Source of the DNA: Dehalococcoidia bacterium
GTDB taxonomy: Bacteria; Chloroflexota; Dehalococcoidia; GIF9; UBA5629
DNA length: 64,000 bases
Assembly: GCA_034429715.1 (NCBI GenBank)
Contig: DAOUFR010000112.1
Span: 3,242-67,241 of the forward strand
Direction: 5' to 3'
The notes under the pieces are model-generated. The model ran no database searches, was not told the DNA's origin, and saw nothing but the letters and a program-made list of their open reading frames with translations. Positions 32,922 through 63,099 of this stretch are shown here, piece after piece. The position numbers and the translations under genes are program-made. Numbering within the stretch: the first letter of the stretch is position 1; each line of letters starts with the position of its first letter.

Positions 32922-33671
32922 TTATATATACTCGACCGCATTCCGGGCGATTTTATATCCGTTTTCTTCCTGGATAATTATTTGCGGGCTATCGGGATTT
33001 TCTTCCAATTTTTCACGCAGGTGGCGTATATATTGCTGCAGATTTGATGTGCAATCCACATATTCTATACCCCAGACCTTGGTGAGTATGTCGTCCCCCG
33101 ATATCGTCTTGCCTTCATGCGAGACAAGATATTTAAGAAGGTTTAATTCGGTGGTCGAGAGTTTAACCTGTTCCCCGTTCTTCTGAACCGTGCCTGCTGA
33201 TACGTTCATCCTGATTCTCTTTGCTGCAGGCACACTCCTGGCTTCGGTCGCCGGTGCAGCTTTAACTTCCACGCTCTTTTTAGGGGCCTCTCTTTTGCCA
33301 CGGTGCCTGAATACAGCCTTCACGCGAGCGAGAAGCTCGTTATGATTAAAAGGCTTCACAATATAATCATCCGCACCCATCTCCAGACCCCTCACTTTAT
33401 CCGTCTCGTCACCCCTTATCGTGAGTATAACGATGGGTATATCGCTGTAGCTGCGTATCTCCTTCAGAACCTTCATACCGTCCATGTCAGGTAACCCGAG
33501 GTCCAGAATGATCATAGCGGGTGATTCAGACTTCATCAATGCGAGTCCCTCTGCACCCTTTACGGCCGGTATTATCTTGACTTCGGGCATGTGCATCTCG
33601 AATATCAGATTGGTTACTTCCCTGATATCGGCGTTATCCTCTATGAGCAGGATTTTCAATTGTCCCGGCAT
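32922..33671 (-). CDS. OmpR/PhoB-family response regulator: REC plus winged-helix, joined by a long Ala/Lys-rich linker.
   Basis: REC has ILLIEDN...IILDLGLPDMDG...YIVKPF. The C-terminal LT..E..LL..L......G...S...I...VWG is trans_reg_C. Confidence 0.85.
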   Translation of the reverse strand: MPGQLKILLIEDNADIREVTNLIFEMHMPEVKIIPAVKGAEGLALMKSESPAMIILDLGLPDMDGMKVLKEIRSYSDIPIVILTIRGDETDKVRGLEMGADDYIVKPFNHNELLARVKAVFRHRGKREAPKKSVEVKAAPATEARSVPAAKRIRMNVSAGTVQKNGEQVKLSTTELNLLKYLVSHEGKTISGDDILTKVWGIEYVDCTSNLQQYIRHLREKLEENPDSPQIIIQEENGYKIARNAVEYI

Positions 33672-39171: not shown

Positions 39172-40644
39172 TTATTTAACGTAGAACCTGGGCCTGATCC
39201 TGGTCCAGAAGGACGGACAGGCCATGACCCTTGGATTTTTTCCTACTACTTTCTCTGCTATTTTCATGGCTTCACCGAAATCTCGAGCGGGAGTGCAGCC
39301 TACATCACGCACCGCGCCGGGGCCACCGGTGCCGCTGACTTGTACCTGAGCCAGCGGATTGTCCATGCCCGGCACACCCGCCATAATGATCTTATTGGCC
39401 TGGTTAAGGGCATACTCGCTCTCATACATCAGCCAGAAGCCGTGCACGGGCGCGTAGGCATGCCCATGCCTGTATTTAAAAATGAGGTCTTCGCGGTACA
39501 TGAACTCCTCTTCATAAACGGATAGCTCCCGCATTGAGAAGCAGTTACGGTAAAGGTCGAGTATCTCCGAATAAGACGGGTGCGACCTCTCGTCTATAGT
39601 GCCGTCGCAATGAGCCAGCGCGATGACAACACCGCCTTCTCTCAGCAATGGTTTATTGACCCACATCCGTACGGGGGCGCACGCCGCAGCCAGCGCTATG
39701 AGAGGATTGCTGGTCTCACCGTAAAGCGAGTAACGCGGTACACCGTAGATAAGCACATCGGCCTGCGGCACCTCCATATGATAGATGCTTTCGGCAAATT
39801 TCCAGGTAGGTTCGTTGATCTCAGGCGAATAACCTGCAAAAACCCCGGCCGGAGCGCCACCTGCGGTGGGGACGACATCCACATAAAATACACGCTTTCC
39901 GGTGAATTTTTCGATCTGAGCCATGACCGCTTCCTTGTGAGCGCGATACATCATGGTATGCTGGTTGCCGTGGCAGGAATCAGGATGGCCTACCACCGGA
40001 AAACCGTGCGTTGATGTCATACTGCGCGTGCTGGGAAAACCGATTATCACGCCGGTACCCGTCATACCACCCCAGTTCGAAACTACCACAGTGCCTGTAT
40101 AAATAAAAAGGTCGGAATCCTGCAACGCCCTGTTGTACTCCACATAATCACCCATAGCAGATGTGCCCATATATACGAGGTTCTCTGTGTCATGGCAATC
40201 ATGGTTGATAATTCTTGAGGCGCTTCCGGGCGGCGCAAACCTGTCATAGATGGCCGGCCCCAGGTAAGCCCTCAACTGAATGTCGGTCCATTTGCAGTGA
40301 TTGCCGCTACCGCATAGAAAATATATATTTTCTTCTTTCACACCGGCCTTAAGAAGCTCTTCTATCAGAATGGGGATAATCATCTGCCGCGGTTTCCCCG
40401 GCCGGGATGGGTCATCAAAACCGATGGTAACCTTGCCGTTACGCGCCTTTTGGGCCAGCTCGGACAGGGGCGGCGCGCCTACCGGCTTCGCAATAGCATC
40501 ACGTATGGCTTTTTCGGGGTCCTGTAAGGCTGGAGGATTGGGGATCTCTCCCACCACTGTTTCTCCCGGCACCTCAATGTCTATCTTCTTATCCCAATAG
40601 TCTGCCTGGATTGTTTTATTGCTCACCGTTATCCTCCTTAACAA
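39172..40644 (-). CDS. LarA-like protein (DUF2088 N-terminal domain; nickel-pincer-dependent racemase/epimerase family).
   Basis: 490 aa. Has the N-terminal GKVTIGFDDPSRP and the internal Gly/His-rich blocks typical of lactate racemase LarA homologs. No larB, larC or larE genes are in the window. Confidence 0.55.
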   Translation of the reverse strand: MLRRITVSNKTIQADYWDKKIDIEVPGETVVGEIPNPPALQDPEKAIRDAIAKPVGAPPLSELAQKARNGKVTIGFDDPSRPGKPRQMIIPILIEELLKAGVKEENIYFLCGSGNHCKWTDIQLRAYLGPAIYDRFAPPGSASRIINHDCHDTENLVYMGTSAMGDYVEYNRALQDSDLFIYTGTVVVSNWGGMTGTGVIIGFPSTRSMTSTHGFPVVGHPDSCHGNQHTMMYRAHKEAVMAQIEKFTGKRVFYVDVVPTAGGAPAGVFAGYSPEINEPTWKFAESIYHMEVPQADVLIYGVPRYSLYGETSNPLIALAAACAPVRMWVNKPLLREGGVVIALAHCDGTIDERSHPSYSEILDLYRNCFSMRELSVYEEEFMYREDLIFKYRHGHAYAPVHGFWLMYESEYALNQANKIIMAGVPGMDNPLAQVQVSGTGGPGAVRDVGCTPARDFGEAMKIAEKVVGKNPRVMACPSFWTRIRPRFYVK

Positions 40645-40746
40645 TTAAAATCGATCTTGATTTATCTATTGATCAGATTCAAAGACGGCTTCATAATATC
40701 ACAGCTATAATTTCAGTCCAAACCACTGTTCTTCTATCACCGGCAT

Positions 40747-40775
40747 TAGACAAATTATACAAATATTGTATAATT
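40747..40775 (+). promoter_or_regulatory. Sigma70-type promoter with an embedded perfect palindrome, and a candidate operator, upstream of the ssuA-like ABC operon.
   Basis: TAGACA, a 16-nt spacer, then TATAAT. The palindrome AATTATACAA-ATA-TTGTATAATT (40753-40775) overlaps the -10. A near-identical copy lies upstream of dsrA. Confidence 0.5.
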
Positions 40776-40824
40776 TAATCAACCCCTTGGCGACTGATAT
40801 AATTTGCTGAATCAGGTGGTGTAG

Positions 40825-41823
40825 ATGAAACTTATATTAAAGCTGCTGATGAGTTTTGTGCTGGCGTCGTTGTTATTTCTCCCCGTCAGTGGTCTGTGGG
40901 GCTGTGCGCCTGCGAAGCCGCCCTCCATACGTATCGGCTATCTGCTGGGCGATCTGCACCAGTTGCCGTTCTTTGTGGCCGAGGACAAAGGATTCTTCAC
41001 TGAGGAAGGACTGGATATCGAGGTGGTGGGTCCCTTTGAGGCAGGGCCTGCAGAGATGGATGCTCTGGCAGCCGGCCAGATCGATATGGGCTACGTCGGA
41101 ATGGCGCCTGCCGTGATGGCGGCTGCCCGCAAGATTCCACTTGCCATAGTATCGGGTGTCAATCTGGAGGGTTCCGGCCTGGTGACCCGTACAGATATAA
41201 GCAGCGTTTCCGAACTGAAGTCAAAAAAAATAGCAACGCCTGCGCCGGGATCGATACAATATGTAATGTTCGGGATGCTTCTGGCCGATAATGATTTAGG
41301 TTACAACGACATCGAGCTTTTCCCCGGTACCGTTAAACCCCCGGATATGCCACAGTCCCTGCAGACCGGACGCATCGACGGATACTTTGTATGGGAGCCT
41401 TTCGTAGCTAAGTCTGTTGTAGGCGGCTACGGTAAAGTCCTTGTGGAATCAAAGGATATCTGGCCCGGTCATCCCTGCTGTGTGATAGTGGCAGGGGGTG
41501 ATTTCATCCGTTCTCAGGATAGCGTTGTAGCTGCGGTAATACGTGCGCATCGCAGGGCTATTGATTATATAGCGGCCAACCCGGACGAAGCCAAAGCTAT
41601 TGCCAGCAAATGGACCAAACTGGATTCCGCCGTTATCGATAACGCTTTCCAACGGGTAAAATACACCTATTCTCTTAATAAGGACGATGTCAAGAAATTT
41701 GTTGGGGACATCATTAATCTTGGTGAGACAGGAGCGATCAAGCCGATAATAACAACTGCTGATGTCCCGGATTTAGATAAGTTTGTCGAGATGGTAGTAG
41801 ATACCAAATATATTCAGAGGTGA
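40825..41823 (+). CDS. ABC transporter substrate-binding protein of the NitT/TauT family (aliphatic sulfonate/taurine/nitrate type).
   Basis: Signal peptide with lipobox-like LWGCAP. The overall SsuA/TauA-like fold is shared with the NMT1 family. Confidence 0.75.
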   Translation: MKLILKLLMSFVLASLLFLPVSGLWGCAPAKPPSIRIGYLLGDLHQLPFFVAEDKGFFTEEGLDIEVVGPFEAGPAEMDALAAGQIDMGYVGMAPAVMAAARKIPLAIVSGVNLEGSGLVTRTDISSVSELKSKKIATPAPGSIQYVMFGMLLADNDLGYNDIELFPGTVKPPDMPQSLQTGRIDGYFVWEPFVAKSVVGGYGKVLVESKDIWPGHPCCVIVAGGDFIRSQDSVVAAVIRAHRRAIDYIAANPDEAKAIASKWTKLDSAVIDNAFQRVKYTYSLNKDDVKKFVGDIINLGETGAIKPIITTADVPDLDKFVEMVVDTKYIQR

Positions 41824-41866
41824 GGCCACGCGTCCTTTACGACTAATTTCGATCCTCCTGTTCCTG

Positions 41867-42592
41867 GTGATCTGGGAAGCGGCAGCCCTCCTGGCCAATA
41901 TACCGCAGCTTTTTCCGACTCCTGTTGCCGTAATTATCGCCCTCGGACAGCTGTTTGTCGCACCCGGTCCTCCCGGATTGTCATGGGCCGGCGAATTAAT
42001 GGGGAATACACTAATCAGCCTCTGGAGGGTCATGGTCGGTTTTGCGCTGGCGGGAGTGACGGGAATATTGCTGGGCATCATCATCGGCTGGTGGCGAAAT
42101 GCCCGAGACCTGCTGGAGCCGATCATAGAGCTGCTGCGCCCTATCCCGCCACTGGCCTGGATACCGCTGGCCATGCTGTGGTTTGGACTGGGTTTCAAGC
42201 CTGCGGTCTTCCTGATCTGGCTGGGCGCCTTTTTCCCGATTTTGCTCAATACGGTGCTCGGCATGGAGAGCACGCCCAACAAGCTGGTGGAGGTAGCTAA
42301 AACGCTTGGCGCCGGACCCTGGCAGATACTGTTTAAGGTCGGTTTGCCGTCGGCGGCCCCCTCCATCATGGCAGGCCTGCGCATCGGTATCGGGATAGGG
42401 TGGATGTGCCTGGTCGCGGCTGAACTGACAGGTTCCAACTCCGGACTGGGTTACATGATAATGTACTACTACTCGACCATGGAAGCATCAAAGACAGTTG
42501 CAGGCATGCTGATGATCGGTATCGTGGGCTTTCTGATGTTCATCGGACTCAAAAATCTCGAGGATAAAATCCTGTTCTGGAAGGCGACATGA
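41867..42592 (+). CDS. ABC transporter permease (SsuC/TauC-like).
   Basis: Binding-protein-dependent transport inner-membrane component, with the EAA-like motif region (AKTLGAGPWQILFKVGLP). The first canonical start is GTG 41867. The frame is open upstream to 41801, so the true N-terminus is uncertain. Confidence 0.75.
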   Translation: MIWEAAALLANIPQLFPTPVAVIIALGQLFVAPGPPGLSWAGELMGNTLISLWRVMVGFALAGVTGILLGIIIGWWRNARDLLEPIIELLRPIPPLAWIPLAMLWFGLGFKPAVFLIWLGAFFPILLNTVLGMESTPNKLVEVAKTLGAGPWQILFKVGLPSAAPSIMAGLRIGIGIGWMCLVAAELTGSNSGLGYMIMYYYSTMEASKTVAGMLMIGIVGFLMFIGLKNLEDKILFWKAT

Positions 42593-43353
42593 GCGGGAAA
42601 AAACTCATCATCGAACGCGTCACGAAAACCTTTATCGAGAAAAAAGGGGGCACATCCACTATGGCCCTGCGCGAATTCAGCCTGGAAATTGAACAAGGCG
42701 AGTTTGTCTGCCTGGTTGGCCCCTCCGGATGCGGTAAGACCACGCTGCTCAAGCTCGTTGCCGGTCTCGAACAGGCCAGTTCAGGCTCTATTTATCTCGA
42801 TGGGAACCCGGTAACCGGGCCGGGCCGTGAGAGGGGACTGGTCTTTCAGGATTTCGCATTGTTCCCCTGGAGGGATGTCCGAGACAATGTGGCCTTCGGT
42901 CCGGAGGTTCTCAAAGTACCGCTCTCTGAGCGACTGCGAATCGCTGAACACTGCATCGATCTCGTTGGATTGTCCGGCAGCAGTCACAAGTACCCTTCTG
43001 AGCTTTCCGGAGGCATGAAGCAACGTGTGGCCATCGCACGCGCCCTGGCCAACAGTCCGGAAGTGCTGCTGATGGATGAGCCATTCGGTTCGCTTGACGC
43101 ACAAACACGCAACCAGATGCAGAACGAGTTACTACGTATCTGGCAGGATAATAAAAAGGCCGTAGTCTTCGTCACACACAGTGTAGAAGAGGCGGTTTAC
43201 CTCTCAAACCGGATTGTGGTGATGACAGGCAGCCCGGGAACAGTTAAGCAGATCTACACTGTGGAGCTTTCCTATCCACGCTCGCGCGCCGACCATGGTT
43301 TTATCTCCCTTCGCGAGAAAATAACAGGCTGCATGGCCGAAGAGTGCAGGTAA
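42589..43353 (+). CDS. ABC transporter ATP-binding protein (SsuB/TauB-like).
   Basis: Walker A GPSGCGKTT, signature LSGGMKQR, Walker B LLMDEPF. Its start overlaps the permease stop by 4 nt. Confidence 0.85.
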   Translation: MSGKKLIIERVTKTFIEKKGGTSTMALREFSLEIEQGEFVCLVGPSGCGKTTLLKLVAGLEQASSGSIYLDGNPVTGPGRERGLVFQDFALFPWRDVRDNVAFGPEVLKVPLSERLRIAEHCIDLVGLSGSSHKYPSELSGGMKQRVAIARALANSPEVLLMDEPFGSLDAQTRNQMQNELLRIWQDNKKAVVFVTHSVEEAVYLSNRIVVMTGSPGTVKQIYTVELSYPRSRADHGFISLREKITGCMAEECR

Positions 43354-43487
43354 AAGCAAAATAGTCTATTATTACTTAGGTCAATGATATCGGGCAGGAG
43401 GTGTAAATATAGTTGCATTCACTTCGGTTGACTGTCCTATTGCTGGATCGCCAGTTCATCTCAAATTTAATGCTCGGAGGTTAGAAC

Positions 43488-44750
43488 TTGGATAGCACTA
43501 AGAGTAAAGCAGTACCGGTAATTCCGCCCAGAAGCCGCGGCTATATCGCATACTTAGCCGTGCTCATGACCATCGTCGCCCTCATGGACTGGTATATATC
43601 CACGATCAAAATGACCGCTCTTCCTTATATACTTAAGGAATACAATTTAACCGCCGCCCAATTTTCATGGACCGAGTCACTTTTCCTGATCCCAACTTTC
43701 CTTGTATTCTTGCTTAACGGGCTGAACGATATTATCGGCAGGAAGTGGTCGGTTTTCATTCTGATGCTGCTCATGGGAACTTCGTGCATTTGCATAGTGT
43801 ATTTCACACCGTCATTCTTAATGTTTATGACATTTTACGCTGTTGCCATGCTCACGACCGTCTCCAATATGTGGGCCATTCCCATCGGCGAGGAGGCGAA
43901 GGCTGCCAACCGCGGCAAGATGGTCGCCCTTGTATATACAATCGGTATGATCCCCCTGAGCGCACTATTACCGTCCCTTCTCGTTGATAAGCTGGGATTG
44001 GACTGGAGATGGATGTACGGCGTGATGTTCGTCATGATGATGATCGGCATTGTACTGTGGTTTTTTATGAAGGAAACAGCCAGGTACGAACAGATTAAGG
44101 CCGAACGCAAAGCCGGCACCCGTAAGGAGCATATCTTCGGTGTGGGAGTTATCACAAAAGGCGATATAAAATACATTGCTATCGGCGCACTGATGTGGAT
44201 ATGCTGGCTGCTCGACCAGTTTCTCTTTTTCTGGGCAGGACATTATTTCATGGATATCAAAGGTTTAACCCTGCAGCAGTGGACTTACGGGGTACTGCTG
44301 TTGGCCATGTTAGGCACGATAGCCGGCGGCCTTATTGCTGGCTGGTTACTGGATAAGATCGGCAGGAAGGTAACATGGTTCATCGGGTGCCTGGGCATGG
44401 CAATTTCCATGGCACCTATAGGTTTCCTTCCGGATTCACTGGTACGCATTGCGGTTATCTCTGGCGGCTTCTTCATGGGTTTTTCCTACGCATGGATTGT
44501 AGTATTTATCCCTGAGATATTCCCCACGGATAGAAGGGGCTCCTGCCTGGGATGGACCACAACCATCACCCGCATCTCTTACGTGCTCGGTCCCGTAGTG
44601 GCAGCCGTTTTATTAACACTATCTCCCAATATGGAATGGTTCTGGGTGGTAACAGGGGCAATTATGATCATTCCGGCCGTGAGTATTCTTATAATTAAAC
44701 CCTATGAGACGAAAAACAAAGAGCTGGAAGAGATAGAGTTCAGGCTTTAG
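43488..44750 (+). CDS. MFS transporter.
   Basis: 420 aa with 12 predicted TM segments and a GRK-type loop motif (DIIGRKW). Confidence 0.7.
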   Translation: MDSTKSKAVPVIPPRSRGYIAYLAVLMTIVALMDWYISTIKMTALPYILKEYNLTAAQFSWTESLFLIPTFLVFLLNGLNDIIGRKWSVFILMLLMGTSCICIVYFTPSFLMFMTFYAVAMLTTVSNMWAIPIGEEAKAANRGKMVALVYTIGMIPLSALLPSLLVDKLGLDWRWMYGVMFVMMMIGIVLWFFMKETARYEQIKAERKAGTRKEHIFGVGVITKGDIKYIAIGALMWICWLLDQFLFFWAGHYFMDIKGLTLQQWTYGVLLLAMLGTIAGGLIAGWLLDKIGRKVTWFIGCLGMAISMAPIGFLPDSLVRIAVISGGFFMGFSYAWIVVFIPEIFPTDRRGSCLGWTTTITRISYVLGPVVAAVLLTLSPNMEWFWVVTGAIMIIPAVSILIIKPYETKNKELEEIEFRL

Positions 44751-44836
44751 CCCGGTTAATTGGATCGGTTGGCGCCAGGCAGCAGCGGGGATTTTGTTAC
44801 CTTATATAATCTCTACTACCATGGAGGGACCATAAT

Positions 44837-45787
44837 ATGAAAGGCAAAGGTAAAATAGTGTGTAACGTTGCTGTGATCGGTGCTGGAGTAATGGGTCCCG
44901 GCATCGCCCAGGTTTTCGCCCAGGCAGGTTGCCCGGTTAAAATTATTGATATCGACAAGGTAGCCTTACAGCAGGCACGAGAACGCATCGAATCAAGTGT
45001 AAGCGCGTTTAAACAAGCCGGGATTTATGGAGCGCGTAAAGCGGCCGCAACATTATCCAATATCAGTGTCACAGCAAACCTTGCGGACGGACTTAAAAAG
45101 GCCGGTTTCATCGTTGAGGCGATCGGGGAAAACATGGAGTTGAAAAGGGCTCTGTACAAGCAGGTTGAGAAGCTTGCCCCACCCTCAGCCGTTATCGCCA
45201 GCAATACCTCGACGTTCTCTATCGATGATTTGGCCAAGGGATCAAAACGGCCGGGAAGGTACATGTTAACGCACTTCGTTAATCCTCCAAATGTCATACC
45301 CCTGGTTGAAGTGGCCCGTGGAGTGCAGACTTCCGATAAAACCTACGATTTCACACTGGCTCTGCTCAAGCAGGCGGGCAAACGTCCCCTGATACTGAAG
45401 AAAATGATACCCGGACACCTAATCAACAACTTCAATTTTGCCATATTGAGCACTGCCCTGGGCTTTATGGGACAGGGCATCGCCTCTATAGAGGATATTG
45501 ACCGTGCGCTCACGGAGGCGCTCGGCCCACGTTATTCGATAATGGGTCCTTTCAAGACCATGGATTTGCTCGGCCTCAATATCATCTGGCAATCGGTGAC
45601 TTCTTTTGATCCCAACGCCCACAATGATCCGCGCATCAAAGAGTTGAAAAAATTGTACCAGGCAGGCAAGCTGGGGATGAGAACCGGGGCAGGTTTCTAT
45701 GACTACGGCGGAAAAACATACTTCGATACACTCAACCACTATAATCGCAGGATCCTAAAAGCTTATAAAACGGCACAGGAAAAATAA
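44837..45787 (+). CDS. 3-hydroxyacyl-CoA dehydrogenase family protein (NAD-binding).
   Basis: N-terminal VAVIGAGVMGPGIAQV Rossmann fold, then the 3HCDH N- and C-domains. Confidence 0.85.
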   Translation: MKGKGKIVCNVAVIGAGVMGPGIAQVFAQAGCPVKIIDIDKVALQQARERIESSVSAFKQAGIYGARKAAATLSNISVTANLADGLKKAGFIVEAIGENMELKRALYKQVEKLAPPSAVIASNTSTFSIDDLAKGSKRPGRYMLTHFVNPPNVIPLVEVARGVQTSDKTYDFTLALLKQAGKRPLILKKMIPGHLINNFNFAILSTALGFMGQGIASIEDIDRALTEALGPRYSIMGPFKTMDLLGLNIIWQSVTSFDPNAHNDPRIKELKKLYQAGKLGMRTGAGFYDYGGKTYFDTLNHYNRRILKAYKTAQEK

Positions 45788-45847
45788 TCCCGCAGCACAG
45801 GTTATTCTATAAATAGATTGATATTTAATTGACCGGTTTCAGGCATC

Positions 45848-46351
45848 ATGGAACTCTGTAGTCTGCTCGAAAAGAAAAAACCGATCATTCTTAAGAATTG
45901 GGTCGCGGCAATCCTTGGCACCTATCCCGACGATGTTGGCGCATTCTTCAAAGATGAGATGGACATGTTCGCCAACCCTGTTGGTCACACCATCATGACC
46001 AATGCTGAAAATATACTGGAAGGACTTATCAGCGGTGAGGATGCGCACACGCAATCTGTCTATATAGAGAGGATCATCCGCATTCGCGCTGTGCAGAATT
46101 TCACCACTGTCCAGGCAGTATCCTTCATCAACAGCTTAAAAACAGCAATAATCGATCAGCTTGAATCGGAGATAAGCAGGCGCAATCTCCGGGATGAATG
46201 GGATGAGTTACAGGTAACCGTGGACAGTCTTGCCCCCCTGGCTTTGGGGATATACGCAAAAACTCAGGAGAGAATTGAGCATATCCGCAGGAAAGAGATC
46301 GAGAACAACGAGAAGTTCCTGATGAGACTGATGGGAAGTCGAAATCCATGA
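45848..46351 (+). CDS. Conserved hypothetical protein immediately upstream of dsrM. Its position corresponds to dsrT in other dsrMKJOP loci.
   Basis: 167-aa soluble helical protein. Its stop overlaps the dsrM start by 4 nt. Confidence 0.45.
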   Translation: MELCSLLEKKKPIILKNWVAAILGTYPDDVGAFFKDEMDMFANPVGHTIMTNAENILEGLISGEDAHTQSVYIERIIRIRAVQNFTTVQAVSFINSLKTAIIDQLESEISRRNLRDEWDELQVTVDSLAPLALGIYAKTQERIEHIRRKEIENNEKFLMRLMGSRNP

Positions 46352-47379
46352 ATCGCACAGCTATAATACTCTACCCCCTGGCCGTGGTAACATTGCTTGT
46401 CCTGCTGTCGCTCTTGACTTTGTTTGGTAACGGCACTGAATATGTTTTCGCAATCATCATACCTTATCTGGCACTGATATCTTTTTTCACAGGTATCATT
46501 TACAGGGTTGTACGCTGGGCGCAGTCGCCCGTCCCCTTCAATATACCCACAGTTTCCGGTCAGGAAAAGTCACTCCCCTGGATCAGAGCCGATAGAATTG
46601 AAAGCCCTTCCAATAACTGGGCTGCGGCCTGGCGTATGTTGCTGGAGATGCTGCTCTTCCGATCTCTATTCCGCAATAATAATATGCAGCAGGCAGGCAG
46701 GCACCGGCTGATCTACGGCGGCAGCCGCTGGCTCTGGCTGGGTGGACTGGCCTTCCACTGGTCACTGTTCATAATCCTCATACGTCACCTGCGTTATTTT
46801 ACGGAACCTGTCTTCCCACCATCAATATGGATCGCCACGATCGACGGATTTCTGCAGTTGGCTCTACCTGCTCTTTTCATCACCGATTTCATCATACTCA
46901 CCGCAGTATCGTATTTATTAGTGAGGAGACTGGTCTCTGCACGGGTCAGGTATATATCTCTCGCTCCGGATTACCTGGCCCTTTTTCTTATCCTCGCAGT
47001 GGTGATCTCGGGCATTCTTATGCGCTCCGTATTTAAGGTAGACCTTGTCGCAGTCAAGGAGTTGGCGATCAGCGTGATCACTTTCAGACCGGCGGTCCCC
47101 GCCGGCATCGGCCTTCCTTTCTATATCCACCTGCTGCTCGTTTGCACATTAATAGCCTATTTCCCTTTCAGCAAAATGATACACGCTGCCGGCATACTCC
47201 TCAGCCCCACACGCAGCTTAAAGAACGACAGCCGAAGGGTGAGGCATGTTAATCCCTGGAACCGCCCGGTCAGGGTGCATACTTATACCGAATACGAAGA
47301 CGAGTTCAGACAGCCCATGATCAAGGCAGGTATTCCCGTTGACATAAATACTGCTGCGGGGAGCAATGATGGCAGATAA
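46348..47379 (+). CDS. dsrM: DsrM, the NarI-like membrane dihaem cytochrome b of the DsrMKJOP complex.
   Basis: 343 aa and multi-TM. Has the His-containing TM motif GGLAFHWSLFIILIRHLRYF. It is followed directly by dsrK. Confidence 0.8.
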   Translation: MNRTAIILYPLAVVTLLVLLSLLTLFGNGTEYVFAIIIPYLALISFFTGIIYRVVRWAQSPVPFNIPTVSGQEKSLPWIRADRIESPSNNWAAAWRMLLEMLLFRSLFRNNNMQQAGRHRLIYGGSRWLWLGGLAFHWSLFIILIRHLRYFTEPVFPPSIWIATIDGFLQLALPALFITDFIILTAVSYLLVRRLVSARVRYISLAPDYLALFLILAVVISGILMRSVFKVDLVAVKELAISVITFRPAVPAGIGLPFYIHLLLVCTLIAYFPFSKMIHAAGILLSPTRSLKNDSRRVRHVNPWNRPVRVHTYTEYEDEFRQPMIKAGIPVDINTAAGSNDGR

Positions 47380-49000
47380 GTTAAACAGGCCCGAAGAGAC
47401 GGCCAGCATCGATTACCATCCTCCCCACCGGAACTGGATGGACCCGTCCGTTGAATTCACAAAGGGTTCCTACTGCTATGCAGCACCTCTCAAGAACCAG
47501 GAGCAATTAGAACTGCCCAATCCACGCCAGTGGAATCCGCTGGATCCTGACTGGAAACTGCCCCCGGACTATAAACGGATTATTCTAAACGGTATGAAAG
47601 AGCGTCTGGACAAATACCGTTCCTGGAAATTATTTCTTGATATTTGCGTGCGCTGTGGAGCCTGCTCCGATAAGTGCCACTATTTCATCGGGTCGGGTGA
47701 TCCCAAAAACATGCCGGTCATGAGGGCTGAATTGTTGCGCTCGGTATACCGCCGGTATTTCACCATCGGGGGCAGGCTCCTGGGTAAGCTGGCCGGCGCC
47801 AGGGACCTGAACGAGCAGATCATTAAGGAGTGGTATTACTACTTCTATCAGTGTTCGGAGTGCCGGCGCTGCTCCGTCTTCTGTCCTTACGGCATCGATA
47901 CGTGCGAGATCACCATGATGGGACGCGAGCTTCTGAACCTGGTAGGCTGCACCACCGAATGGGTGGTCGGACCGGCGTCCAATTCATTCCGTACGGGCAA
48001 TCATGTGGGTATACCCCCGCATGCCATGAAACAAAGCCTTGAATCGGCGCAGGATGATATTAAGACCATCACCGGCATTGAAGTGGATGTACCCATTAAT
48101 AAAAAAGGCGCCGAGATCCTTTTTGTCACCCCGTCAGCCGATTTCTTCGCCAGCCCGGCCTGGTACACGCTGATGGGCTACCTCATGCTGTTCCACGAGA
48201 TCGGGCTGGATTATACGTTCAGCACCTATGCCTCAGAGGGAGGAAATTTCGGACTTTTCCACTCGTCCGAGCTGGCCAAAAGCCTTAACGCAAAAATATA
48301 CGCTGAAGCCGAGCGGCTGAAGGTAAAATGGGTGTTGGGAGGAGAATGCGGCCATATGTGGAGAGTTATACATCAATACATGGATACCTTCAACGGCCCG
48401 CCGTCGTTTCTCGAGGAGCCGGTCTCGCCCGTAACCGGTACTAAATTCGATAACGCCGGATCGACTAAAATGGTCCATATCTGCGAGTTCACCGCAGACC
48501 TGATACACTATGGCAAGCTGAAGCTGGACCCCGGGCGCAATGACAAGTGGAAAGTGACCTACCACGATTCCTGTAACCCGGCTCGGGCCATGGGCCTATT
48601 CGAGGAGCCCCGCTATATCATCAACCACACCTGCAACCATTTTTACGAGATGCCGGAGAATACCATCAGGGAGCGCACTTTCTGCTGCGGCAGCGGAGCC
48701 GGCCTTGGACCCGATGAGAACCTGGAGGTGCGGTTACGCGGCGGTTACCCGCGTGCCAACGCAGTACAGTATGTGCAAGAAAAACACGGCGTCAATCTAT
48801 TGGCCTGCATCTGCGCCATAGACAAAGCTTCGTTCCCGCCTCTACTGGAATACTGGGTGCCCGGCGTGGAAACGGCCGGTGTGCATGAACTGCTTGGCAA
48901 CGCACTCATCATGCAAGGCGAAAAACAGAGGGAAACAGATTTGAGGGGTGAGACTCTAACAGCAAACACATCTTCAGAAGGCGGCCGGGACAGTGTATGA
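47366..49000 (+). CDS. dsrK: DsrK, the HdrD-like catalytic Fe-S subunit with CCG domains.
   Basis: Ferredoxin-type CVRCGACSDKC and CSECRRCSVFCPYG, plus C-terminal Cys-rich CCG motifs (CCGSGAG). It overlaps dsrM by 14 nt. Confidence 0.85.
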   Translation: MMADKLNRPEETASIDYHPPHRNWMDPSVEFTKGSYCYAAPLKNQEQLELPNPRQWNPLDPDWKLPPDYKRIILNGMKERLDKYRSWKLFLDICVRCGACSDKCHYFIGSGDPKNMPVMRAELLRSVYRRYFTIGGRLLGKLAGARDLNEQIIKEWYYYFYQCSECRRCSVFCPYGIDTCEITMMGRELLNLVGCTTEWVVGPASNSFRTGNHVGIPPHAMKQSLESAQDDIKTITGIEVDVPINKKGAEILFVTPSADFFASPAWYTLMGYLMLFHEIGLDYTFSTYASEGGNFGLFHSSELAKSLNAKIYAEAERLKVKWVLGGECGHMWRVIHQYMDTFNGPPSFLEEPVSPVTGTKFDNAGSTKMVHICEFTADLIHYGKLKLDPGRNDKWKVTYHDSCNPARAMGLFEEPRYIINHTCNHFYEMPENTIRERTFCCGSGAGLGPDENLEVRLRGGYPRANAVQYVQEKHGVNLLACICAIDKASFPPLLEYWVPGVETAGVHELLGNALIMQGEKQRETDLRGETLTANTSSEGGRDSV

Positions 49001-49394
49001 TAAAGGAAAGATAATCGGCGGCCTGGCCATTTTCCTTTGTCTGACCAGCTTCCCCGCCTGGTATATGGCTGCCAGCGGAAAGGCTGATTACAGCCCGGAC
49101 CCGGTGCTGCCTGTCAGCGAGAACCAGTGTGTGGAATCTGCACAATATATGAAAGAGTATCACATGCAGCTTATGCAGCAGTGGCGGGACCAGTCGGTAA
49201 GGCAGGGCGATAACACTTATATTTCCAGTGACAACCGCACATTCGACATCAACCTGACGGGCACCTGCTTCAAATGCCACACCAACAAGGCCGATTTCTG
49301 CGACCGCTGTCATAATTATACAGGCACAGCTCCCAACTGCTGGGATTGCCATAACATACCTCCGGCCAGTGCGCCGCCGCAGGTGACGAAATGA
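48993..49394 (+). CDS. dsrJ: DsrJ, a periplasmic trihaem cytochrome c.
   Basis: 133 aa with a signal anchor and three CxxCH motifs (CFKCH, CDRCH, CWDCH). It overlaps dsrK by 8 nt and dsrO by 4 nt. Confidence 0.8.
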   Translation: MYDKGKIIGGLAIFLCLTSFPAWYMAASGKADYSPDPVLPVSENQCVESAQYMKEYHMQLMQQWRDQSVRQGDNTYISSDNRTFDINLTGTCFKCHTNKADFCDRCHNYTGTAPNCWDCHNIPPASAPPQVTK

Positions 49395-50155
49395 ATATCG
49401 ACCGCCGCTCTTTTCTCAAACTGGCAGCTCTCGGCCTGCTTGCCATAGCTGCCAAACCTGCCATCGACTTCATCTCAAAGCCGTCTGCGGCCAGGGCTCT
49501 CGACGGACCGTTTTCCGGCAAACGTCTGGCTATGGCTGTAGACCTCAAGGCCTGCACTGCCGGAGACGGCTGCGTTGACTGCATTGCCGCGTGCCACCGG
49601 GTACACAACGTCCCCGACATAGGCAATATCAAAGAGGAGGTCAAATGGCTGTGGGAGGTCGACTACAAGCAGGCTTTCCCTGATCAGGAGAACGGATTTG
49701 TCAGTGAACCGTTGCTGGACAGCAGGGTGCTGGTACTGTGTAACCACTGCGACAACCCGCCCTGCGTCAAAGTGTGCCCAACGCAGGCGACCTGGAAGAG
49801 GGAAGACGGCATAGTTATGATGGACTACCACCGCTGCATCGGTTGCCGCTATTGCATGGCGGCATGCCCCTATGGCTCCCGCAGCTTCAACTGGCGCGAT
49901 CCGCGCCCTTATATCGATATCATCGAGCAGAGCTACCCCACCCGTACCAGAGGCGTGGTCGAGAAGTGCAACTTCTGCGAGGAGCGACTATCAGATGGAT
50001 TGCAGCCTGCCTGCGTGGAAGCTTGCAGCAGCGGGGCATTGAAATTCGGAGACCTGAATCAGGGCACAGATTTGTACAACCTGATTTCATCGCAATTCAA
50101 CCTGCGGCGCAAGGCCGAGCTGGGTACGCGGCCGCAGGTCTATTATTTGCTGTAG
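49391..50155 (+). CDS. dsrO: DsrO, a periplasmic Tat-exported 4x[4Fe-4S] ferredoxin-like subunit.
   Basis: Twin-arginine signal RRSFLKLAALGLLAIAA. There are multiple Cys clusters (CNHCDNPPCVKVCP, CIGCRYCMAACP). Confidence 0.85.
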   Translation: MNIDRRSFLKLAALGLLAIAAKPAIDFISKPSAARALDGPFSGKRLAMAVDLKACTAGDGCVDCIAACHRVHNVPDIGNIKEEVKWLWEVDYKQAFPDQENGFVSEPLLDSRVLVLCNHCDNPPCVKVCPTQATWKREDGIVMMDYHRCIGCRYCMAACPYGSRSFNWRDPRPYIDIIEQSYPTRTRGVVEKCNFCEERLSDGLQPACVEACSSGALKFGDLNQGTDLYNLISSQFNLRRKAELGTRPQVYYLL

Positions 50156-50163
50156 GTTTCACA

Positions 50164-51318
50164 TTGATTGAGAACATTTTCAGAGGCGGAAAGACATACT
50201 GGCTGCTGGTGAGCGGCCTGCTCGTGCTTATGGCGGCAGGGCTGGCAGCCTATCTCGAGCAGTGGAATATCGGTCTGGCGGTGACCGGTTTGAGCAGGGA
50301 TGTTTCCTGGGGCCTGTACCTTGCCAACTTTACCTTCTTCGTTGGTATAGCCGCCTCCGCCGTCATGATTGTCATCCCTTACTATCTGCATAACACACGG
50401 GAATTCCGCCGCATACTTATACTGGGAGAGTTCATGGCCGTAGCGGCCTGCCTGGTGGCCATTACTTTCATACTGGTGGACCTGGGCCAGCCGGCCAGGG
50501 TACTTAATATCATTCTTTATCCCTCACCCGGTTCCATTATTTTCTGGGATGTTGTGGTGCTCTCGGTCTACCTGCTGCTCAACATCATCCTCGGCTGGGT
50601 GGCGCTGGATGCCGAGTACAAAGAGGTCGCTCCGCCGGCCTGGTTAAAGCCAGTTGCAATCATATCCGTAGTCTGGGCTATCAGCATTCACACCGTCACC
50701 GCATTCATATACGCCGGGTTGGCAGCACGCGCTTTCTGGCTGACCGCCCTGCTGGCGCCCCGCTTCCTGGCCTCGGCTTTCGCCTCCGGACCCGCCCTCC
50801 TGATATTATTGGCCCTGGCCATGAAGAAGTGGGGCGGCTTCGACCCGGGTGACCAGTCCCTGGACAAGGTGGCCAAGATCGTCACGTACGCCATTATCAT
50901 CACCGTCTTCTTCCTGCTGCTGGAGATCTTCACGGTTTTCTACAGCCAAGAGCCGGACGCTGTGTCACACTTCCAGTACCTGCTATTTGGATTGGACAAT
51001 CATTACGGACTCGTACCATGGCTATGGACATCGGTCATTCTGGCCTGCGCCGCCATTATCCTGATGGTCATACCCTCTATGCGAAAAAATCAGCTCACAC
51101 TTGCGTTGGCCTGTGCAGCTGTTTTCATCTCCATCTGGATCGATAAAGGCCTGGGCCTGATCGTGCCGGGTTTTATTCCGTCACCTCTGGGAGACATTAC
51201 CGAATACACCCCCACCTTGCTCGAAACACTAATAACTATTGGGGTATGGTCGATGGGCGGTTTAATACTGACTCTGCTGCTCAAGGTGGTGCTGGGTGTC
51301 AGACAGAGACAGCGCTGA
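50164..51318 (+). CDS. dsrP: DsrP, a NrfD/PsrC-like integral membrane quinone-interacting subunit.
   Basis: Polytopic membrane protein. The listed ORF 49774..51318 overlaps dsrO in another frame. The real start is most likely the TTG at 50164, just after the dsrO stop, and no ATG or GTG is available there. Confidence 0.7.
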   Translation: MIENIFRGGKTYWLLVSGLLVLMAAGLAAYLEQWNIGLAVTGLSRDVSWGLYLANFTFFVGIAASAVMIVIPYYLHNTREFRRILILGEFMAVAACLVAITFILVDLGQPARVLNIILYPSPGSIIFWDVVVLSVYLLLNIILGWVALDAEYKEVAPPAWLKPVAIISVVWAISIHTVTAFIYAGLAARAFWLTALLAPRFLASAFASGPALLILLALAMKKWGGFDPGDQSLDKVAKIVTYAIIITVFFLLLEIFTVFYSQEPDAVSHFQYLLFGLDNHYGLVPWLWTSVILACAAIILMVIPSMRKNQLTLALACAAVFISIWIDKGLGLIVPGFIPSPLGDITEYTPTLLETLITIGVWSMGGLILTLLLKVVLGVRQRQR

Positions 51319-51370
51319 ACGACATCTCTTTGACAAATAATTACTCGCCGTAGATAATTGAGCCGCAGAT

Positions 51371-51916
51371 ATGTATCATCCTTTAAATTCCATACCCGGT
51401 AGCAAGAGGTTACCGGCATTCCTGTGGCTGCTGGCTGCGACCATAGGCATTACCATCGTGTTCCGCTTTATCGGCCCCTTCAAACCGACCATTGTGGATT
51501 TCGAGCTGGCCGGAAGTGTGGAGAAAACATCGGCGATAATCGGCGCGTGGGATACACTGGCCAGGCTGCAGGCCTGTTTCAACCTGGGCTTCGATTACCT
51601 TTATATGCCCGTATATTCAACTACTATAGCCCTGGCCTGTGTGATGGGCGCCGGCGTCGTTTCACGGAGCGGCTGGAGAAATCTCGGACTGCTGTTGGCC
51701 TGGGGCTTATGGCTGGCCGCTATACTCGACGCCGTGGAGAATTACGCCCTGATCACTATGATGTACGGCAGCCCGGCGGCCCCGTATCCTCAGATAGCTG
51801 CGTATTGCGCAGCCTGTAAATTCGGCCTGATCATTCTGGGCCTGCTATACGCCCTTATCTCGCTTATCGTTTATCTGGTTAAACTCTCCCGAATAAAGCT
51901 TGTGCCGCTGAAATAA
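51371..51916 (+). CDS. Hypothetical membrane protein with about five TM segments.
   Basis: 181-aa hydrophobic ORF between dsrP and ccsA. No recognisable family. Confidence 0.45.
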   Translation: MYHPLNSIPGSKRLPAFLWLLAATIGITIVFRFIGPFKPTIVDFELAGSVEKTSAIIGAWDTLARLQACFNLGFDYLYMPVYSTTIALACVMGAGVVSRSGWRNLGLLLAWGLWLAAILDAVENYALITMMYGSPAAPYPQIAAYCAACKFGLIILGLLYALISLIVYLVKLSRIKLVPLK

Positions 51917-52815: not shown

Positions 52816-52844
52816 TTGACAGCAATTAAGTGATATTGTATAAA
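52816..52844 (+). promoter_or_regulatory. Candidate sigma70 promoter: TTGACA, a 17-nt spacer, then TATAAA, upstream of the YeiH-like transporter gene.
   Basis: Consensus -35, 17-nt spacer and a near-consensus -10, about 135 nt upstream of 52979. The spacer shares ATATTGTATAA with the dsrA and ssuA-like promoter motif. Confidence 0.4.
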
Positions 52845-52978
52845 GGAGCTTAAGACCGGGCAATATCAGGTGAGGGGGGTGATATATTTAACAATTGTTC
52901 CGTTTTTTTCAGTCCCAGGATTCGTTTCATCTTTTTTAATCAGTACTACTATTAATCGATAATAAAGGAGGTGAGAGG

Positions 52979-54345: not shown

Positions 54346-55443
54346 TTATATCCCCTGCAACTTATAGCACCCCCGGCACTGTGCCGGCGCCTGCGGCATC
54401 GTCCCCGGGACTTCAGTCAGGGACTGTTTCTCCTGTCCCTGTAAATTTCTACGTGCTCCGCGTATCCCGGGCAGAGTCAGCAACGCCATTGATTTGGCTG
54501 CATTTAATCTCGAGTGCTCGATTCGCCGTTCGAACGCCAGCCTGAACTCCTTTGCCTGTGCATTCTCAAGCACTTTACCGAAGCCATCCTGCACATTTCC
54601 ATAGATAAAGCGGTCAACCGGGCCTTCATCACGCCATGATATTATCCTAGGAATCATGCCTTCAACCGGCATACAGAGGTAAACACAGGGAGAGACTTCG
54701 CCCCGCACACTCACAACAACATTGTGCAGCGGATCGTCGCTGCAAACAGGTGAATTGTCACGGGGCTCCAACGGATAAATATGTACCTGGATACCTCTCT
54801 TTTTCCCCCTCATCTCTGCTTCCTTGACTATGTCATATAGACGTGGATCGAACGTCTGGCCGAACGTTTTCAGCGCCTCCGCCTCAGCGTCAGGTATGTA
54901 ATCAAGATTAGGTACGATCACCCTGTCCGCTTTAAGCTCCGCCGCCAGATCAACCAGCTCAGGCAACTCCGCGATGTTCGGTTTCATCATCTGCATGACG
55001 AGATGAATATCCGGGTGAGACCTGGCCGCGCTTAATCCGGCGATATTCTTGCAGATTTGCGCCAGGCTCGATCCTGCTCTTAGAGAATCGTGTGTAGTAG
55101 ACCTGGCTCCCGCCACCGACACCGCTATGAAAGCAAACCCGATCTCGCATATCCGCCGGACGGCGGCGTCATCCAGCAGCACGCCGTTGGTGGTCAGGCT
55201 GACCCTGCCTCCCCTCTCCTTGATTGCCCTTGCCATGCTCCAGATTTCGGGATGGAGCAGCGGCTCCCCCCATCCCTGCAGGTGCACCAGTTCCGCTTTA
55301 CCCAGGTACGGCAAAATCTGCGTAAAAGCATCGCGACTTATATCCCGTGAGATCCATCTGTCTTTAAGCAGCGTGTGCGGGCAAAAGCAGCACCTTAGCT
55401 GGCACCTGGTCGATACCTCTACCTGTATAATGCGAGGCTGCAT
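54346..55443 (-). CDS. Radical SAM protein with a C-terminal SPASM-like Cys-rich extension.
   Basis: N-terminal CQLRCCFC contains CxxxCxxC. It has a GWGEPLL SAM-binding motif and C-terminal extra Cys (CVYLC, CRGC). It lacks the Gly-rich N-terminal motif of canonical GRE activases. Confidence 0.75.
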   Translation of the reverse strand: MQPRIIQVEVSTRCQLRCCFCPHTLLKDRWISRDISRDAFTQILPYLGKAELVHLQGWGEPLLHPEIWSMARAIKERGGRVSLTTNGVLLDDAAVRRICEIGFAFIAVSVAGARSTTHDSLRAGSSLAQICKNIAGLSAARSHPDIHLVMQMMKPNIAELPELVDLAAELKADRVIVPNLDYIPDAEAEALKTFGQTFDPRLYDIVKEAEMRGKKRGIQVHIYPLEPRDNSPVCSDDPLHNVVVSVRGEVSPCVYLCMPVEGMIPRIISWRDEGPVDRFIYGNVQDGFGKVLENAQAKEFRLAFERRIEHSRLNAAKSMALLTLPGIRGARRNLQGQEKQSLTEVPGTMPQAPAQCRGCYKLQGI

Positions 55444-55539
55444 CGGAATTAACCTCTGATCAGTGTATCCAAACGCATTCTAACACAGCATCGTAATCAG
55501 CTGCCTGTTCTTTGACCTGCTCGAAAAACGTATGTTATA

Positions 55540-56187
55540 TTGCGGCCTATGGGCGTGCTGAGAGATATTCTCCCCACAGTGCTGGACACTAAAATAAAAA
55601 ATATCCTGACCGAGGAAAGAGAGGTGGCTAAAGCAGTGGCTACCGATGTAACCGGCACAATGGCTTTAGGGGTCTGGGATTTCGTGCTTCCTCCGCTCTT
55701 TGCAATCAATCTGCTCAAACATCACCGGTCGAAAGAGGCCTTTACACTTAATTTCATGTTTACCAAGAAACTGGCGCTGGAAGCAGCCGGCAATATGTTG
55801 CAATCCGGCCTGACAATAGATAATTGCCTGGCAGAGGTGGAGAAAAAGACATCTTCGATCCTGAGCGCCGACCGGAAAGGCGTGTATTCGGAGAAGGTGC
55901 GTCTGAAACAGATGCAGGAGGTCCGCCTGCTGATCGACCATTATCAAAAGCTGATTATGTCTGAGGGTAAAACCTACCGCGATATGGTTAAGTCAGCATA
56001 TGTGGACCGGGAATCATTCGATACGTTTTTGCACAGGCTCAGTTCAGCCGAAAAAGACGTCAACCGGGCTGCTTTGCAGATAGTGAGCAAAAGCACTGAA
56101 GCAAGGGACTTTGTTGCCAGGATGGAGAAGTCGGTGAACCAGATACGCAACAGGGACCTGGACAATTATTTTCCCCTACCTGAATAA
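55540..56187 (+). CDS. Hypothetical protein.
   Basis: 215-aa ORF between the radical SAM and GRE genes. No recognisable domain. Confidence 0.4.
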   Translation: MRPMGVLRDILPTVLDTKIKNILTEEREVAKAVATDVTGTMALGVWDFVLPPLFAINLLKHHRSKEAFTLNFMFTKKLALEAAGNMLQSGLTIDNCLAEVEKKTSSILSADRKGVYSEKVRLKQMQEVRLLIDHYQKLIMSEGKTYRDMVKSAYVDRESFDTFLHRLSSAEKDVNRAALQIVSKSTEARDFVARMEKSVNQIRNRDLDNYFPLPE

Positions 56188-56191
56188 AGGC

Positions 56192-58792: not shown

Positions 58793-58878
58793 AGAATGAT
58801 TTCCCCCTGTCTTAATCCACTGATAAAATTATATTTGGCCGACCGGATTTATTGAAATACGCAGCTTTATTATACCAG

Positions 58879-58907
58879 TTTACAAATTATACAAATAATG
58901 TATAATT
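58879..58907 (+). promoter_or_regulatory. Sigma70-type promoter with an embedded palindrome (one mismatch) upstream of dsrA, in the divergent GRE/dsrA intergenic region.
   Basis: TTTACA, a 16-nt spacer, then TATAAT. The spacer AATTATACAAATAATG is 15 of 16 identical to the spacer at 40753-40768. The flanking TTTAA is also conserved. Confidence 0.5.
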
Positions 58908-59010
58908 TAACTGTCGATAAATGCGGTGGGGAGCGGGCATGATTATGCCTGCAAATGGTATTATTTTAGTATCAGACTCGGGCGGATTAAACAACCAGGA
59001 GGTGCAGTAA

Positions 59011-60180: not shown

Positions 60181-60200
60181 ATATATTGAAGGAGAGAGAA

Positions 60201-61265: not shown

Positions 61266-61278
61266 AAGGAGTAGCAAG

Positions 61279-61479
61279 ATGACAGAAGGAGTTAGCGAGG
61301 AACTAAAAGAGAAAGTTTTAAAATACCTGGGCACGGTCAGCAAGGCCAAGAACCGCGACGTGGCGCGCGCAGTGGAAGTCGAGAAAGCCCTGGTGGATAA
61401 GACTATTTCTGAATTGGCCAAGGAAAACAAGATCGAGTATATCTACCTGGGAACCTCATATATACAGCTCAAGCAGTAG
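61279..61479 (+). CDS. dsrD: DsrD, a small winged-helix protein of dsr operons.
   Basis: 66 aa, basic and helical, with YLG...KAKNRDVARA and IEYIYLGTSYIQL. It sits directly after dsrB. Confidence 0.8.
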   Translation: MTEGVSEELKEKVLKYLGTVSKAKNRDVARAVEVEKALVDKTISELAKENKIEYIYLGTSYIQLKQ

Positions 61480-61492
61480 AGAGGAACATTGC

Positions 61493-62926: not shown

Positions 62927-62931
62927 ATGAA

Positions 62932-63081: not shown

Positions 63082-63099
63082 ACAACAGGAGAACTGAGC

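Follow-up and report, generated by a model that had tools for sequence, protein, structure and literature searches.

What controls the dsr genes of Dehalococcoidia? The members of this class that carry such genes are uncultured, and what they respire, and when, is an open question (PMC4959651, PMC10591310). The literature on Dehalococcoidia reports dsr genes, and we found nothing in it on their control. The locus described here is a stretch of 64,000 nucleotides from a Dehalococcoidia bacterium (GenBank assembly GCA_034429715.1, contig DAOUFR010000112.1, positions 3,242 to 67,241 of the forward strand), which we refer to in its entirety as the window. It contains two copies of a short promoter block with an embedded palindrome, one (site 1) upstream of an ATP-binding cassette (ABC) transporter operon and the other (site 2) upstream of dsrAB. 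An original prediction, made from the sequence alone, had noted this pair and proposed that a single regulator acts through it. Below we argue that the palindrome is probably the operator of a dimeric repressor, and we weigh that interpretation against four others.

Two copies of one palindromic promoter

The two blocks are as originally described: over 29 nt (40750-40778 and 58882-58910) they have 28 bases in common, reading ACAAATTATACAAATA[T/A]TGTATAATTTAA, and the sole difference is T40765 at site 1 versus A58897 at site 2. Outside this block, the intergenic DNA around the two sites does not align. The inverted repeat at site 1 is a perfect 10-3-10 palindrome, as had been predicted, and can in fact be extended to 11-3-11, while that of site 2 folds as 10-5-10. 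Within the repeat of 23 to 25 bp lies an invariant inner core, ATACAA-N3-(T/A)TGTAT. A consensus scan scored both sites at 11/12 to the sigma-70 consensus with a spacer of 16 nt, and at both sites the palindrome fills this spacer and forms the -10 hexamer TATAAT. The one mismatch ascribed to site 2 is present as a difference between the copies, but it is not decay, since the innermost right-arm base is an A/T polymorphism found throughout the clade.

Site 1 also contains a promoter match on the opposite strand, with a -35 hexamer TTGATT (40782-40777) and a -10 hexamer TATAAT (40759-40754) that lies within the left arm. The flank TAATCAA of this mirror promoter is unchanged in 19 of 19 site-1 orthologues, and the -35 hexamer on the ABC side is TAGACA or TATACA in the same 19. 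Given the minus-strand match and its invariant -35, the block at site 1 reads as a mirrored pair of opposed promoters in which each arm supplies one -10. No -35 was found on the minus strand of site 2 in the promoter consensus scan.

This geometry admits an explanation that dispenses with a dedicated regulator. The block would then be a compact bidirectional promoter, each arm forming one -10, and the spacer would be kept for reasons of polymerase contact or DNA shape. The fact that the strands of site 1 score 11/12 and 10/12 within the same 36 bp, with both -35 hexamers invariant in 19 orthologues, speaks for such an arrangement, but we consider it quite unlikely as a full account: site 2 lacks a minus-strand -35, yet its inner left arm is invariant; the symmetric bases CAA/TTG and the central ATA belong to neither hexamer and yet do not vary; and the spacer is not common to other promoters of the window. 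Bidirectional promoters that arise from sequence symmetry were reportedly described by Warman et al. in 2021. Site 1 likewise has opposite-strand -10 boxes in one symmetric AT-rich element, but its boxes do not overlap, starting 15 bp apart, its predicted transcription starts are about 34 bp apart versus 18, and site 2 is one-sided.

The element occurs at two positions only

When the 23-mer was searched with up to 3 mismatches, only the two sites were found in the window, and 100 shuffles yielded no match at all. When the arms are scored as 9-5-9, 4/18 mismatches separate the pattern from its nearest competitor in the window. The element is therefore real, beyond chance, and is no generic promoter consensus of the window DNA.

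We also scanned one genome per species (596 Gb) with the 18 arm bases as the query, a search that finds perfect arms only. It returned 104 loci, 25 of them in Dehalococcoidia metagenome-assembled genomes (MAGs) and 79 elsewhere. All 25 Dehalococcoidia loci, which come from 15 genomes, fall at one of two orthologous positions, and 22 of them align to the window over kilobases at 74 to 88% nucleotide identity (the exceptions are loci L064, L082, and L088). Ten of these genomes (CAZDXZ01, JBFYUA01, DAOUFT01, JAQTLG01, CAIYTC01, JAFGHL01, JAPLHM01, CAYTIC01, JBAZLT01, and CAVWAG01) have both perfect sites and five have site 1 only; a perfect site 2 never occurs without a perfect site 1, and the scan found no third perfect copy in any genome of the clade. 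Nor was a further copy with 4 or fewer mismatches detected in 166 kb of related island DNA and four extensions of 10 to 20 kb (about 71 kb).

The original prediction had named a generic AT-rich promoter consensus as the finding that would undo it. That possibility, like chance resemblance, is refuted and retains practically no probability. The blocks are indeed AT-rich, and the 18-base arm pattern is also present at some 79 unrelated loci in the 596 Gb, which are AT-rich genomes or lineage-specific sites of other factors. However, none were expected in the window and two were found, an estimated 2e-5 matches or so would occur per 2.5-Mb genome at this base composition, the hits occupy two orthologous positions in 10 genomes, and no other promoter of the window comes closer than 4 mismatches. 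The cross-phylum matches, which include ARG boxes, a Peptococcaceae sigma-54 locus, and Pasteurellaceae, are uninformative about the Dehalococcoidia factor.

Two further resemblances were noted. In the window, AATTAAGTGATATTGTATAAAG (52824-52845), between a CcsA-like and a YeiH gene, repeats 11 nt (ATATTGTATAA) of the palindrome's right half; most likely it is no more than a -10 region, and the synteny of relatives breaks there. In two Peptococcaceae MAGs (L033, 3473-3527; L060, 5837-5891), the 9-5-9 core forms the centre of a perfect 16-5-16 palindrome, GGGTAATAATTATACA-N5-TGTATAATTATTACCC, located between a PAS-domain sigma-54 activator and two DsrC-like genes with an HdrD-like gene. This is another sulfur context, and the resemblance may be a coincidence.

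Could the two direct copies instead be recombinase core sites that flank an excisable 18-kb segment, from the ABC genes to the glycyl radical enzyme (GRE) gene left of dsrA? We regard this as very improbable, as no recombinase domain occurs among the scanned open reading frames (ORFs), the predicted LarA-site-dsrA junction is present in none of the dsrA loci examined, and each copy comes with a conserved -35 that is spaced exactly as in a promoter. Two loci (L190 and L191) have site 1 with neither dsrAB nor a second copy at 4 or fewer mismatches within 10 kb downstream, where a CcsA-like gene is followed by unrelated genes. What recommends the idea is that near-identical copies stand in direct orientation 12 to 18 kb apart on three contigs, that the gene content left of site 2 differs between genomes, and that arms of 7 to 11 bp around a centre of 3 to 7 bp are compatible with tyrosine-recombinase cores.

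The spacer is conserved as tightly as the hexamers

Conservation of the motif upstream of dsrA was followed in 80 metagenome loci picked by DsrA similarity alone. Among the 27 loci with DsrA identity of at least 84% and available upstream DNA, 24 have no more than one mismatch (16 perfect arms, 8 with one mismatch) and 3 are degenerate. All loci with DsrA identity of 80% or less show background only, with at least 6 mismatches. When 21 unique clade sequences are compared, 27 columns of the 34-nt block GTTTACAAATTATACAAATAWTGTATAATTTAAC never vary and its pairwise identity averages 0.94, against 0.56 for the remaining intergenic DNA, 0.59 for third codon positions of dsrA, and 0.925 for its first and second positions. 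The spacer is thus held as tightly as the hexamers, and the spacer conservation on which the original prediction relied is real and is what an operator lying over the spacer and -10 would predict. Variation is confined to the outer left arm (positions 1, 3, and 4) and the innermost right-arm base; ATACAAATA-TGTATAAT is invariant.

Site 1 has perfect arms in 16 species genomes, as it does in 3 loci that were picked regardless of the motif. Next to homologues of the transporter's binding protein at 66, 63, and 59% identity, the DNA that separates the LarA-like gene from the transporter holds TAGACA-palindrome-TAATCAA, both arms being perfect; the site is absent at a homologue of 56% identity, where synteny is lost. 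Site 1 is therefore at least as old as site 2. Together, the comparisons support strong purifying selection on the block at both loci across many species.

An AT-richer subclade has GTTTACAAAGTATACAAGAAATGTCATAAT at dsrA, with the left arm retained and the right arm and -10 remodelled; its site 1, as seen in L189, is perfect. This natural variant could reveal which half of the element matters.

The copies head two halves of a sulfite-reduction module

The features of both sites and their surroundings are listed in Table 1. Rightward of site 1, no intergenic terminator was found within the putative unit and the gaps are short; its extent, like that of the dsrA unit, is one that we infer. In relatives (L189 to L191), the ABC genes directly abut dsrT-dsrMKJOP, and co-control of the ABC operon with dsrAB is sensible because of this direct continuation. 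Past the window end, a 10-kb contig identical to it (L185) extends the dsrA side with a second dsrMK pair after dsrC. With site 1 preceding ABC-dsrTMKJOP and site 2 preceding dsrABDNC, the copies head the two halves of a complete sulfite-reduction module.

Table 1. Coordinates of the promoter blocks, proximal elements, and genes in the window
Feature	Position	Strand	Sequence	Basis or remark
Site 1	40747-40778		TAGACAAATTATACAAATATTGTATAATTTAA	Read from window sequence
-35 hexamer of P1, ABC side	40747-40752	+	TAGACA	Consensus scan, 11/12
Site 1 palindrome, 11-3-11	40752-40776		AAATTATACAA-ATA-TTGTATAATTT	Proposed operator centred at about -17 of P1
-10 hexamer of P1, ABC side	40769-40774	+	TATAAT	Consensus scan; inside right arm
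Site 1 mirror promoter, toward LarA-like operon	40754-40782	-		10/12, 17-nt spacer
Site 2	58879-58910		TTTACAAATTATACAAATAATGTATAATTTAA	Read from window sequence
-35 hexamer of P1, dsrA side	58879-58884	+	TTTACA	11/12; invariant in 21 unique clade sequences
Site 2 palindrome	58885-58907		AATTATACAA-ATA-ATGTATAATT	Proposed operator
-10 hexamer of P1, dsrA side	58901-58906	+	TATAAT	Consensus scan
LarA-like proximal promoter	40693-40720	-	TGGACT-16-TATTAT with TG; box CATAATATCACAG	Box kept in close orthologues
Proximal extended -10 (P2), ABC side	40795-40803	+	TGATATAAT	21 nt before binding-protein ATG; kept in most orthologues
Possible stem-loop in dsrA leader	58933-58952	+	GCGGGCAT-GATT-ATGCCTGC	Transcribed only if P1 is used
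Proximal extended -10-like (P2), dsrA side	58956-58964	+	TGGTATTAT	Kept in nearly all clade sequences
LarA_N-like gene	39172-40644	-		Pfam/NCBIfam
NMT1/SsuA-like binding protein, permease, ATPase	40825-43353	+		Pfam/NCBIfam
Putative site-1 unit: SsuA/TauA-like ABC, major facilitator superfamily (MFS), 3-hydroxyacyl-CoA dehydrogenase (3HCDH), DsrT (RsbRD_N), DsrMKJOP, membrane protein	40825-51916	+		Pfam
PFL-like GRE	56192-58792	-		
DsrA and DsrB	59011-61265	+		DsrA: TIGR02064, 554 bits versus cut-off 393, equivalog level
Site-2 operon: dsrA, dsrB, dsrD (61279-61479), dsrN (61493-62926), dsrC (63100-63417)	59011-63417	+		

The gene calls of the original prediction (LarA-like, ABC, GRE, and dsrAB) are right by Pfam and NCBIfam. 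Its label "sulfonate-type" is a weak, family-level call: the transporter scores 156.6 with SsuA_fam, short of the cut-off of 163.5, and among solved relatives TauA and SsuA come out best, with E values of 1e-15 to 1e-11. Left of site 1, the LarA-like gene is followed by genes for a pyridine-nucleotide disulfide oxidoreductase and a short-chain dehydrogenase. The closest solved relative of the GRE is PFL2 of Archaeoglobus, and the isethionate and dihydroxypropanesulfonate (DHPS) lyases are more distant.

The original prediction had further proposed that one regulator might govern four transcription units, including the GRE gene and the LarA-like operon. This is not supported. In five loci (L112, L117, L121, L029, and L188), there is no GRE and a CcsA-like gene lies directly beside dsrA, and the block is retained; by this comparison, the block belongs to dsrA and not to GRE. 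Moreover, the LarA-like and GRE genes have conserved -10 boxes of their own, 60 to 75 nt left of the blocks, and the mirrored promoter exists at site 1 only.

Several observations concern the gene content of these regions. The GRE region (54346-58792) has no canonical activase alongside; a radical SAM/SPASM protein and an NF038143 "HYxxLL" protein are encoded next to the GRE. The GRE, YeiH, radical SAM, and HYxxLL genes vary among relatives (L105, L106, L108, L112, L117, and L121), and dsrA and the promoter block remain. A 49-aa YHS-domain ORF lies between dsrN and dsrC. In the extension beyond dsrC (L185, 2867-6707), the second dsrMK pair is accompanied by a small YgaP-like membrane protein, which is kept in relatives, a DUF134 protein, and a Nitro_FeMo-Co domain protein.

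A candidate operator inside the promoter

Positions outside the hexamers are conserved both between the sites and between species, and the inverted repeat spans the spacer and the -10; both properties are those of an operator. On this basis we think it probable, with some reserve, that the palindrome is the operator of a dimeric repressor, centred at about -17 of the promoters that drive ABC-(MFS-3HCDH)-dsrTMKJOP and dsrABDNC. Each copy would be a strong sigma-70-type promoter with the inverted repeat built into its spacer and -10. One homodimeric factor, encoded elsewhere in the genome, would bind the repeat at about -28 to -6 and would repress rather than activate, the bound factor blocking RNA polymerase from the promoter until a signal releases it. 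We postulate that this signal is linked to the availability of sulfite or of an organosulfur substrate. The two promoters would coordinate the half that comprises the SsuA/TauA-like transporter and dsrTMKJOP with the dsrABDNC(-MK) half. A single dimer at site 1 could also shut the leftward promoter toward the LarA-like operon, and weaker gene-proximal extended -10 promoters could give basal expression.

A more far-reaching version is tentative and, in our judgment, rather doubtful: a dedicated regulon of two promoters would switch the whole sulfite-reduction module, with a regulator of an unrecognised or unexpected family sensing sulfite or organosulfonate and the site-1 dimer closing two opposed promoters.

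Several observations weigh against a repressor operator. Searches with Pfam and NCBIfam through roughly 60 window ORFs and the flanking DNA of relatives revealed no consistently linked regulator gene. With two near-invariant sites per genome, the element is tighter than most operators, and this near-invariance could reflect several overlapping constraints. Right arms are lost at dsrA in three loci of the AT-richer subclade (L113, L115, and L116) and at site 2 of L189 (19060-19110) in the same subclade, with the -35 and left arm kept in each case. The core literally fits a LysR-type box, and LysR-type regulators are usually activators. Lastly, transcription might be driven mainly from the proximal extended -10 elements, which are conserved.

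Proximal promoters, a LysR-type alternative, and the dsrA leader

Extended -10 elements (TGnTATWAT) lie near the binding-protein gene, dsrA, and the LarA-like gene (40795-40803, 58956-58964, and, on the minus strand, 40693-40698). From their sequences, they suggest tandem promoters, and promoters of the TGnTATWAT type may be the rule in the clade. Site 1 has 34 nt between the block and the proximal extended -10, site 2 has 63 nt, and L105, with a deletion of 45 nt, has 18 nt. Distances this variable make a phase-dependent activator site for the plus-strand proximal promoters unlikely.

These promoters bear on an alternative hypothesis, in which the palindrome is an activator site, LysR-type or similar, for the neighbouring extended -10 promoters or for divergent genes. 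The regulatory site of the LysR-type proteins BenM and CatM is T-N11-A / ATAC-N7-GTAT (PMC11495319), and the invariant core ATACAAATATTGTAT (40757-40771), with its ATAC-AAATATT-GTAT, has exactly this form. By our estimate the palindrome centres about 74 to 77 nt upstream of the GRE and LarA-like starts, the usual LysR range, and conserved proximal extended -10 promoters do exist. We nevertheless regard such an activator site as unlikely. Neither a LysR gene nor a divergent regulator gene occurs among the roughly 60 window ORFs scanned or in flanking DNA of relatives, the proximal promoters on the plus strand lie at the variable distances given above, and a 6-nt insertion or deletion in one subclade shifts the distance to the GRE -10. 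The block is also kept where a CcsA-like gene, starting about 50 nt away, replaces the GRE. Unlike a LysR site, which would be expected about 65 nt upstream, the palindrome coincides exactly with the spacer and -10 of a promoter that scores 11/12 and whose -35 is conserved, and it has no recognisable activation site or divergent LysR gene.

An indirect hint that the P1 promoter of dsrA is used, as the operator interpretation would have it, comes from a possible stem-loop, partly covarying and moderately supported, that the dsrA leader would form downstream of the predicted P1 start. In the alignment 68% of cells are paired, and the covariation is 0.297 versus 0.174 in shuffles (0/500 reached it), above all slid controls. 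RNAalifold found no consensus structure in the leader, and the stem-loop is deleted in L105. Compensatory changes occur in several orthologues, and in one subclade another hairpin is found at a shifted position. Rfam gave no match at either site and nothing credible in 58780-59030; only a full-length transfer-messenger RNA gene (1466-1813, minus strand, RF00023, 154.8 bits) reaches the threshold.

Candidates for the regulator

The candidates that we considered were set aside one after the other. The sole regulator in the window, an OmpR-type response regulator (32922-33671) with a GAF kinase, lies 7 kb off, and its family uses direct repeats. DsrD is a winged-helix protein, but it is now regarded as an allosteric activator of DsrAB and no longer as a regulator. 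The DUF134 protein, a predicted DNA-binding protein, follows dsrC in the window extension and in one relative, two others lack it there, and a TetR protein occurs downstream of dsrC in some relatives only. A protein that combines HTH_17/MerR and RsbRD_N domains (L190, L191, and L088) has three direct TTATAG repeats and no palindrome in its own promoter, and no copy of it was found in the window or in the other loci examined.

This last protein is of 217 aa, with a MerR/excisionase-type helix-turn-helix (HTH) and a DsrT-like RsbRD_N domain (L190, 5743-6610; L191, 5764-6590; L088, 1118-1935). Its gene heads a radical-SAM, AhbAB-like, sirohaem/haem operon that adjoins the LarA-like operon. The three direct repeats in its promoter, TTATAG(N)TTT, are the same across lineages. 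The family has more than 1,200 members, and the few named by source are Chloroflexota/Dehalococcoidia.

Comparison with known operators

Among known systems, the element comes closest to the core-promoter operators of repressors such as LexA, TrpR, Fur, and MarR/OhrR-type proteins. Common to both are a dyad of about 23 bp that covers the spacer and -10, the presence of identical copies in front of operons with linked functions, and conservation beyond the hexamers. Unlike typical repressor operators, the element has only two near-invariant sites per genome and no regulator encoded beside its targets, and at site 1 each of its arms also supplies the -10 box of one of two opposed promoters. The half-sites TACAA/TTGTA resemble those of OhrR, a resemblance that we treat as a lead only. 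Within Dehalococcoidia, the MarR-type Rdh2R acts on rdhA promoters. MarR genes are found adjacent to rdhA (PMC4959651).

Other architectures were compared and rejected. MerR-type promoters likewise carry a palindrome between -35 and -10, but the spacer is 16 nt at both sites versus the 19 to 20 nt needed for MerR-type activation. ARG-box-like sites in Eremiobacterota and Acidobacteriota (L008, L017, L025, L037, and L022) have the same 9-5-9 core, AATTATACA-N5-TGTATAATT; these extend to GCAT...ATGC directly before argF/argG or argC/argB, with argR adjoining in L008, and they are probably ARG boxes. The Dehalococcoidia element is flanked by ACA...TTTAA, not GCAT...ATGC, and its neighbours, an ABC transporter and dsr genes, are unrelated to arginine, so that an ArgR reading fails. 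A sigma-54 promoter, with GG at -24 and GC at -12, 10 nt apart, is not matched by the proximal elements downstream of the palindrome, neither at site 2, where TGGTATTATTTTAGT lacks the GC, nor at site 1, where CTGATATAATTTGCT lacks the GG and its TTGC is not conserved. Rex, Fur/PerR, and Helicobacter pylori NikR-like boxes differ in the orientation or spacing of their half-sites. As a type, the candidate is an operator embedded in a promoter, outside the MerR-type, ARG-box, sigma-54, and LysR architectures.

Implications for sulfite respiration in Dehalococcoidia

We came across no publication that reports the motif; when the half-sites and core were searched as strings, primers and unrelated sequences were all that appeared. 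The motif, the two-site regulon, and the clade that hosts them appear not to have been described before. As a kind, an operator within a promoter is ordinary and no surprise in principle, and we see its value as a solid and useful lead for uncultured sulfite reducers. It may be the first candidate for an element that controls dsr genes in the phylum, and it marks the dsr loci of the clade in metagenomes. The element links the Dsr machinery with the SsuA/TauA-like transporter and with the LarA-like operon, supporting a pathway from substrate to sulfite. The effector of the regulator would tell whether free sulfite or an organosulfur compound triggers sulfite respiration in these organisms.

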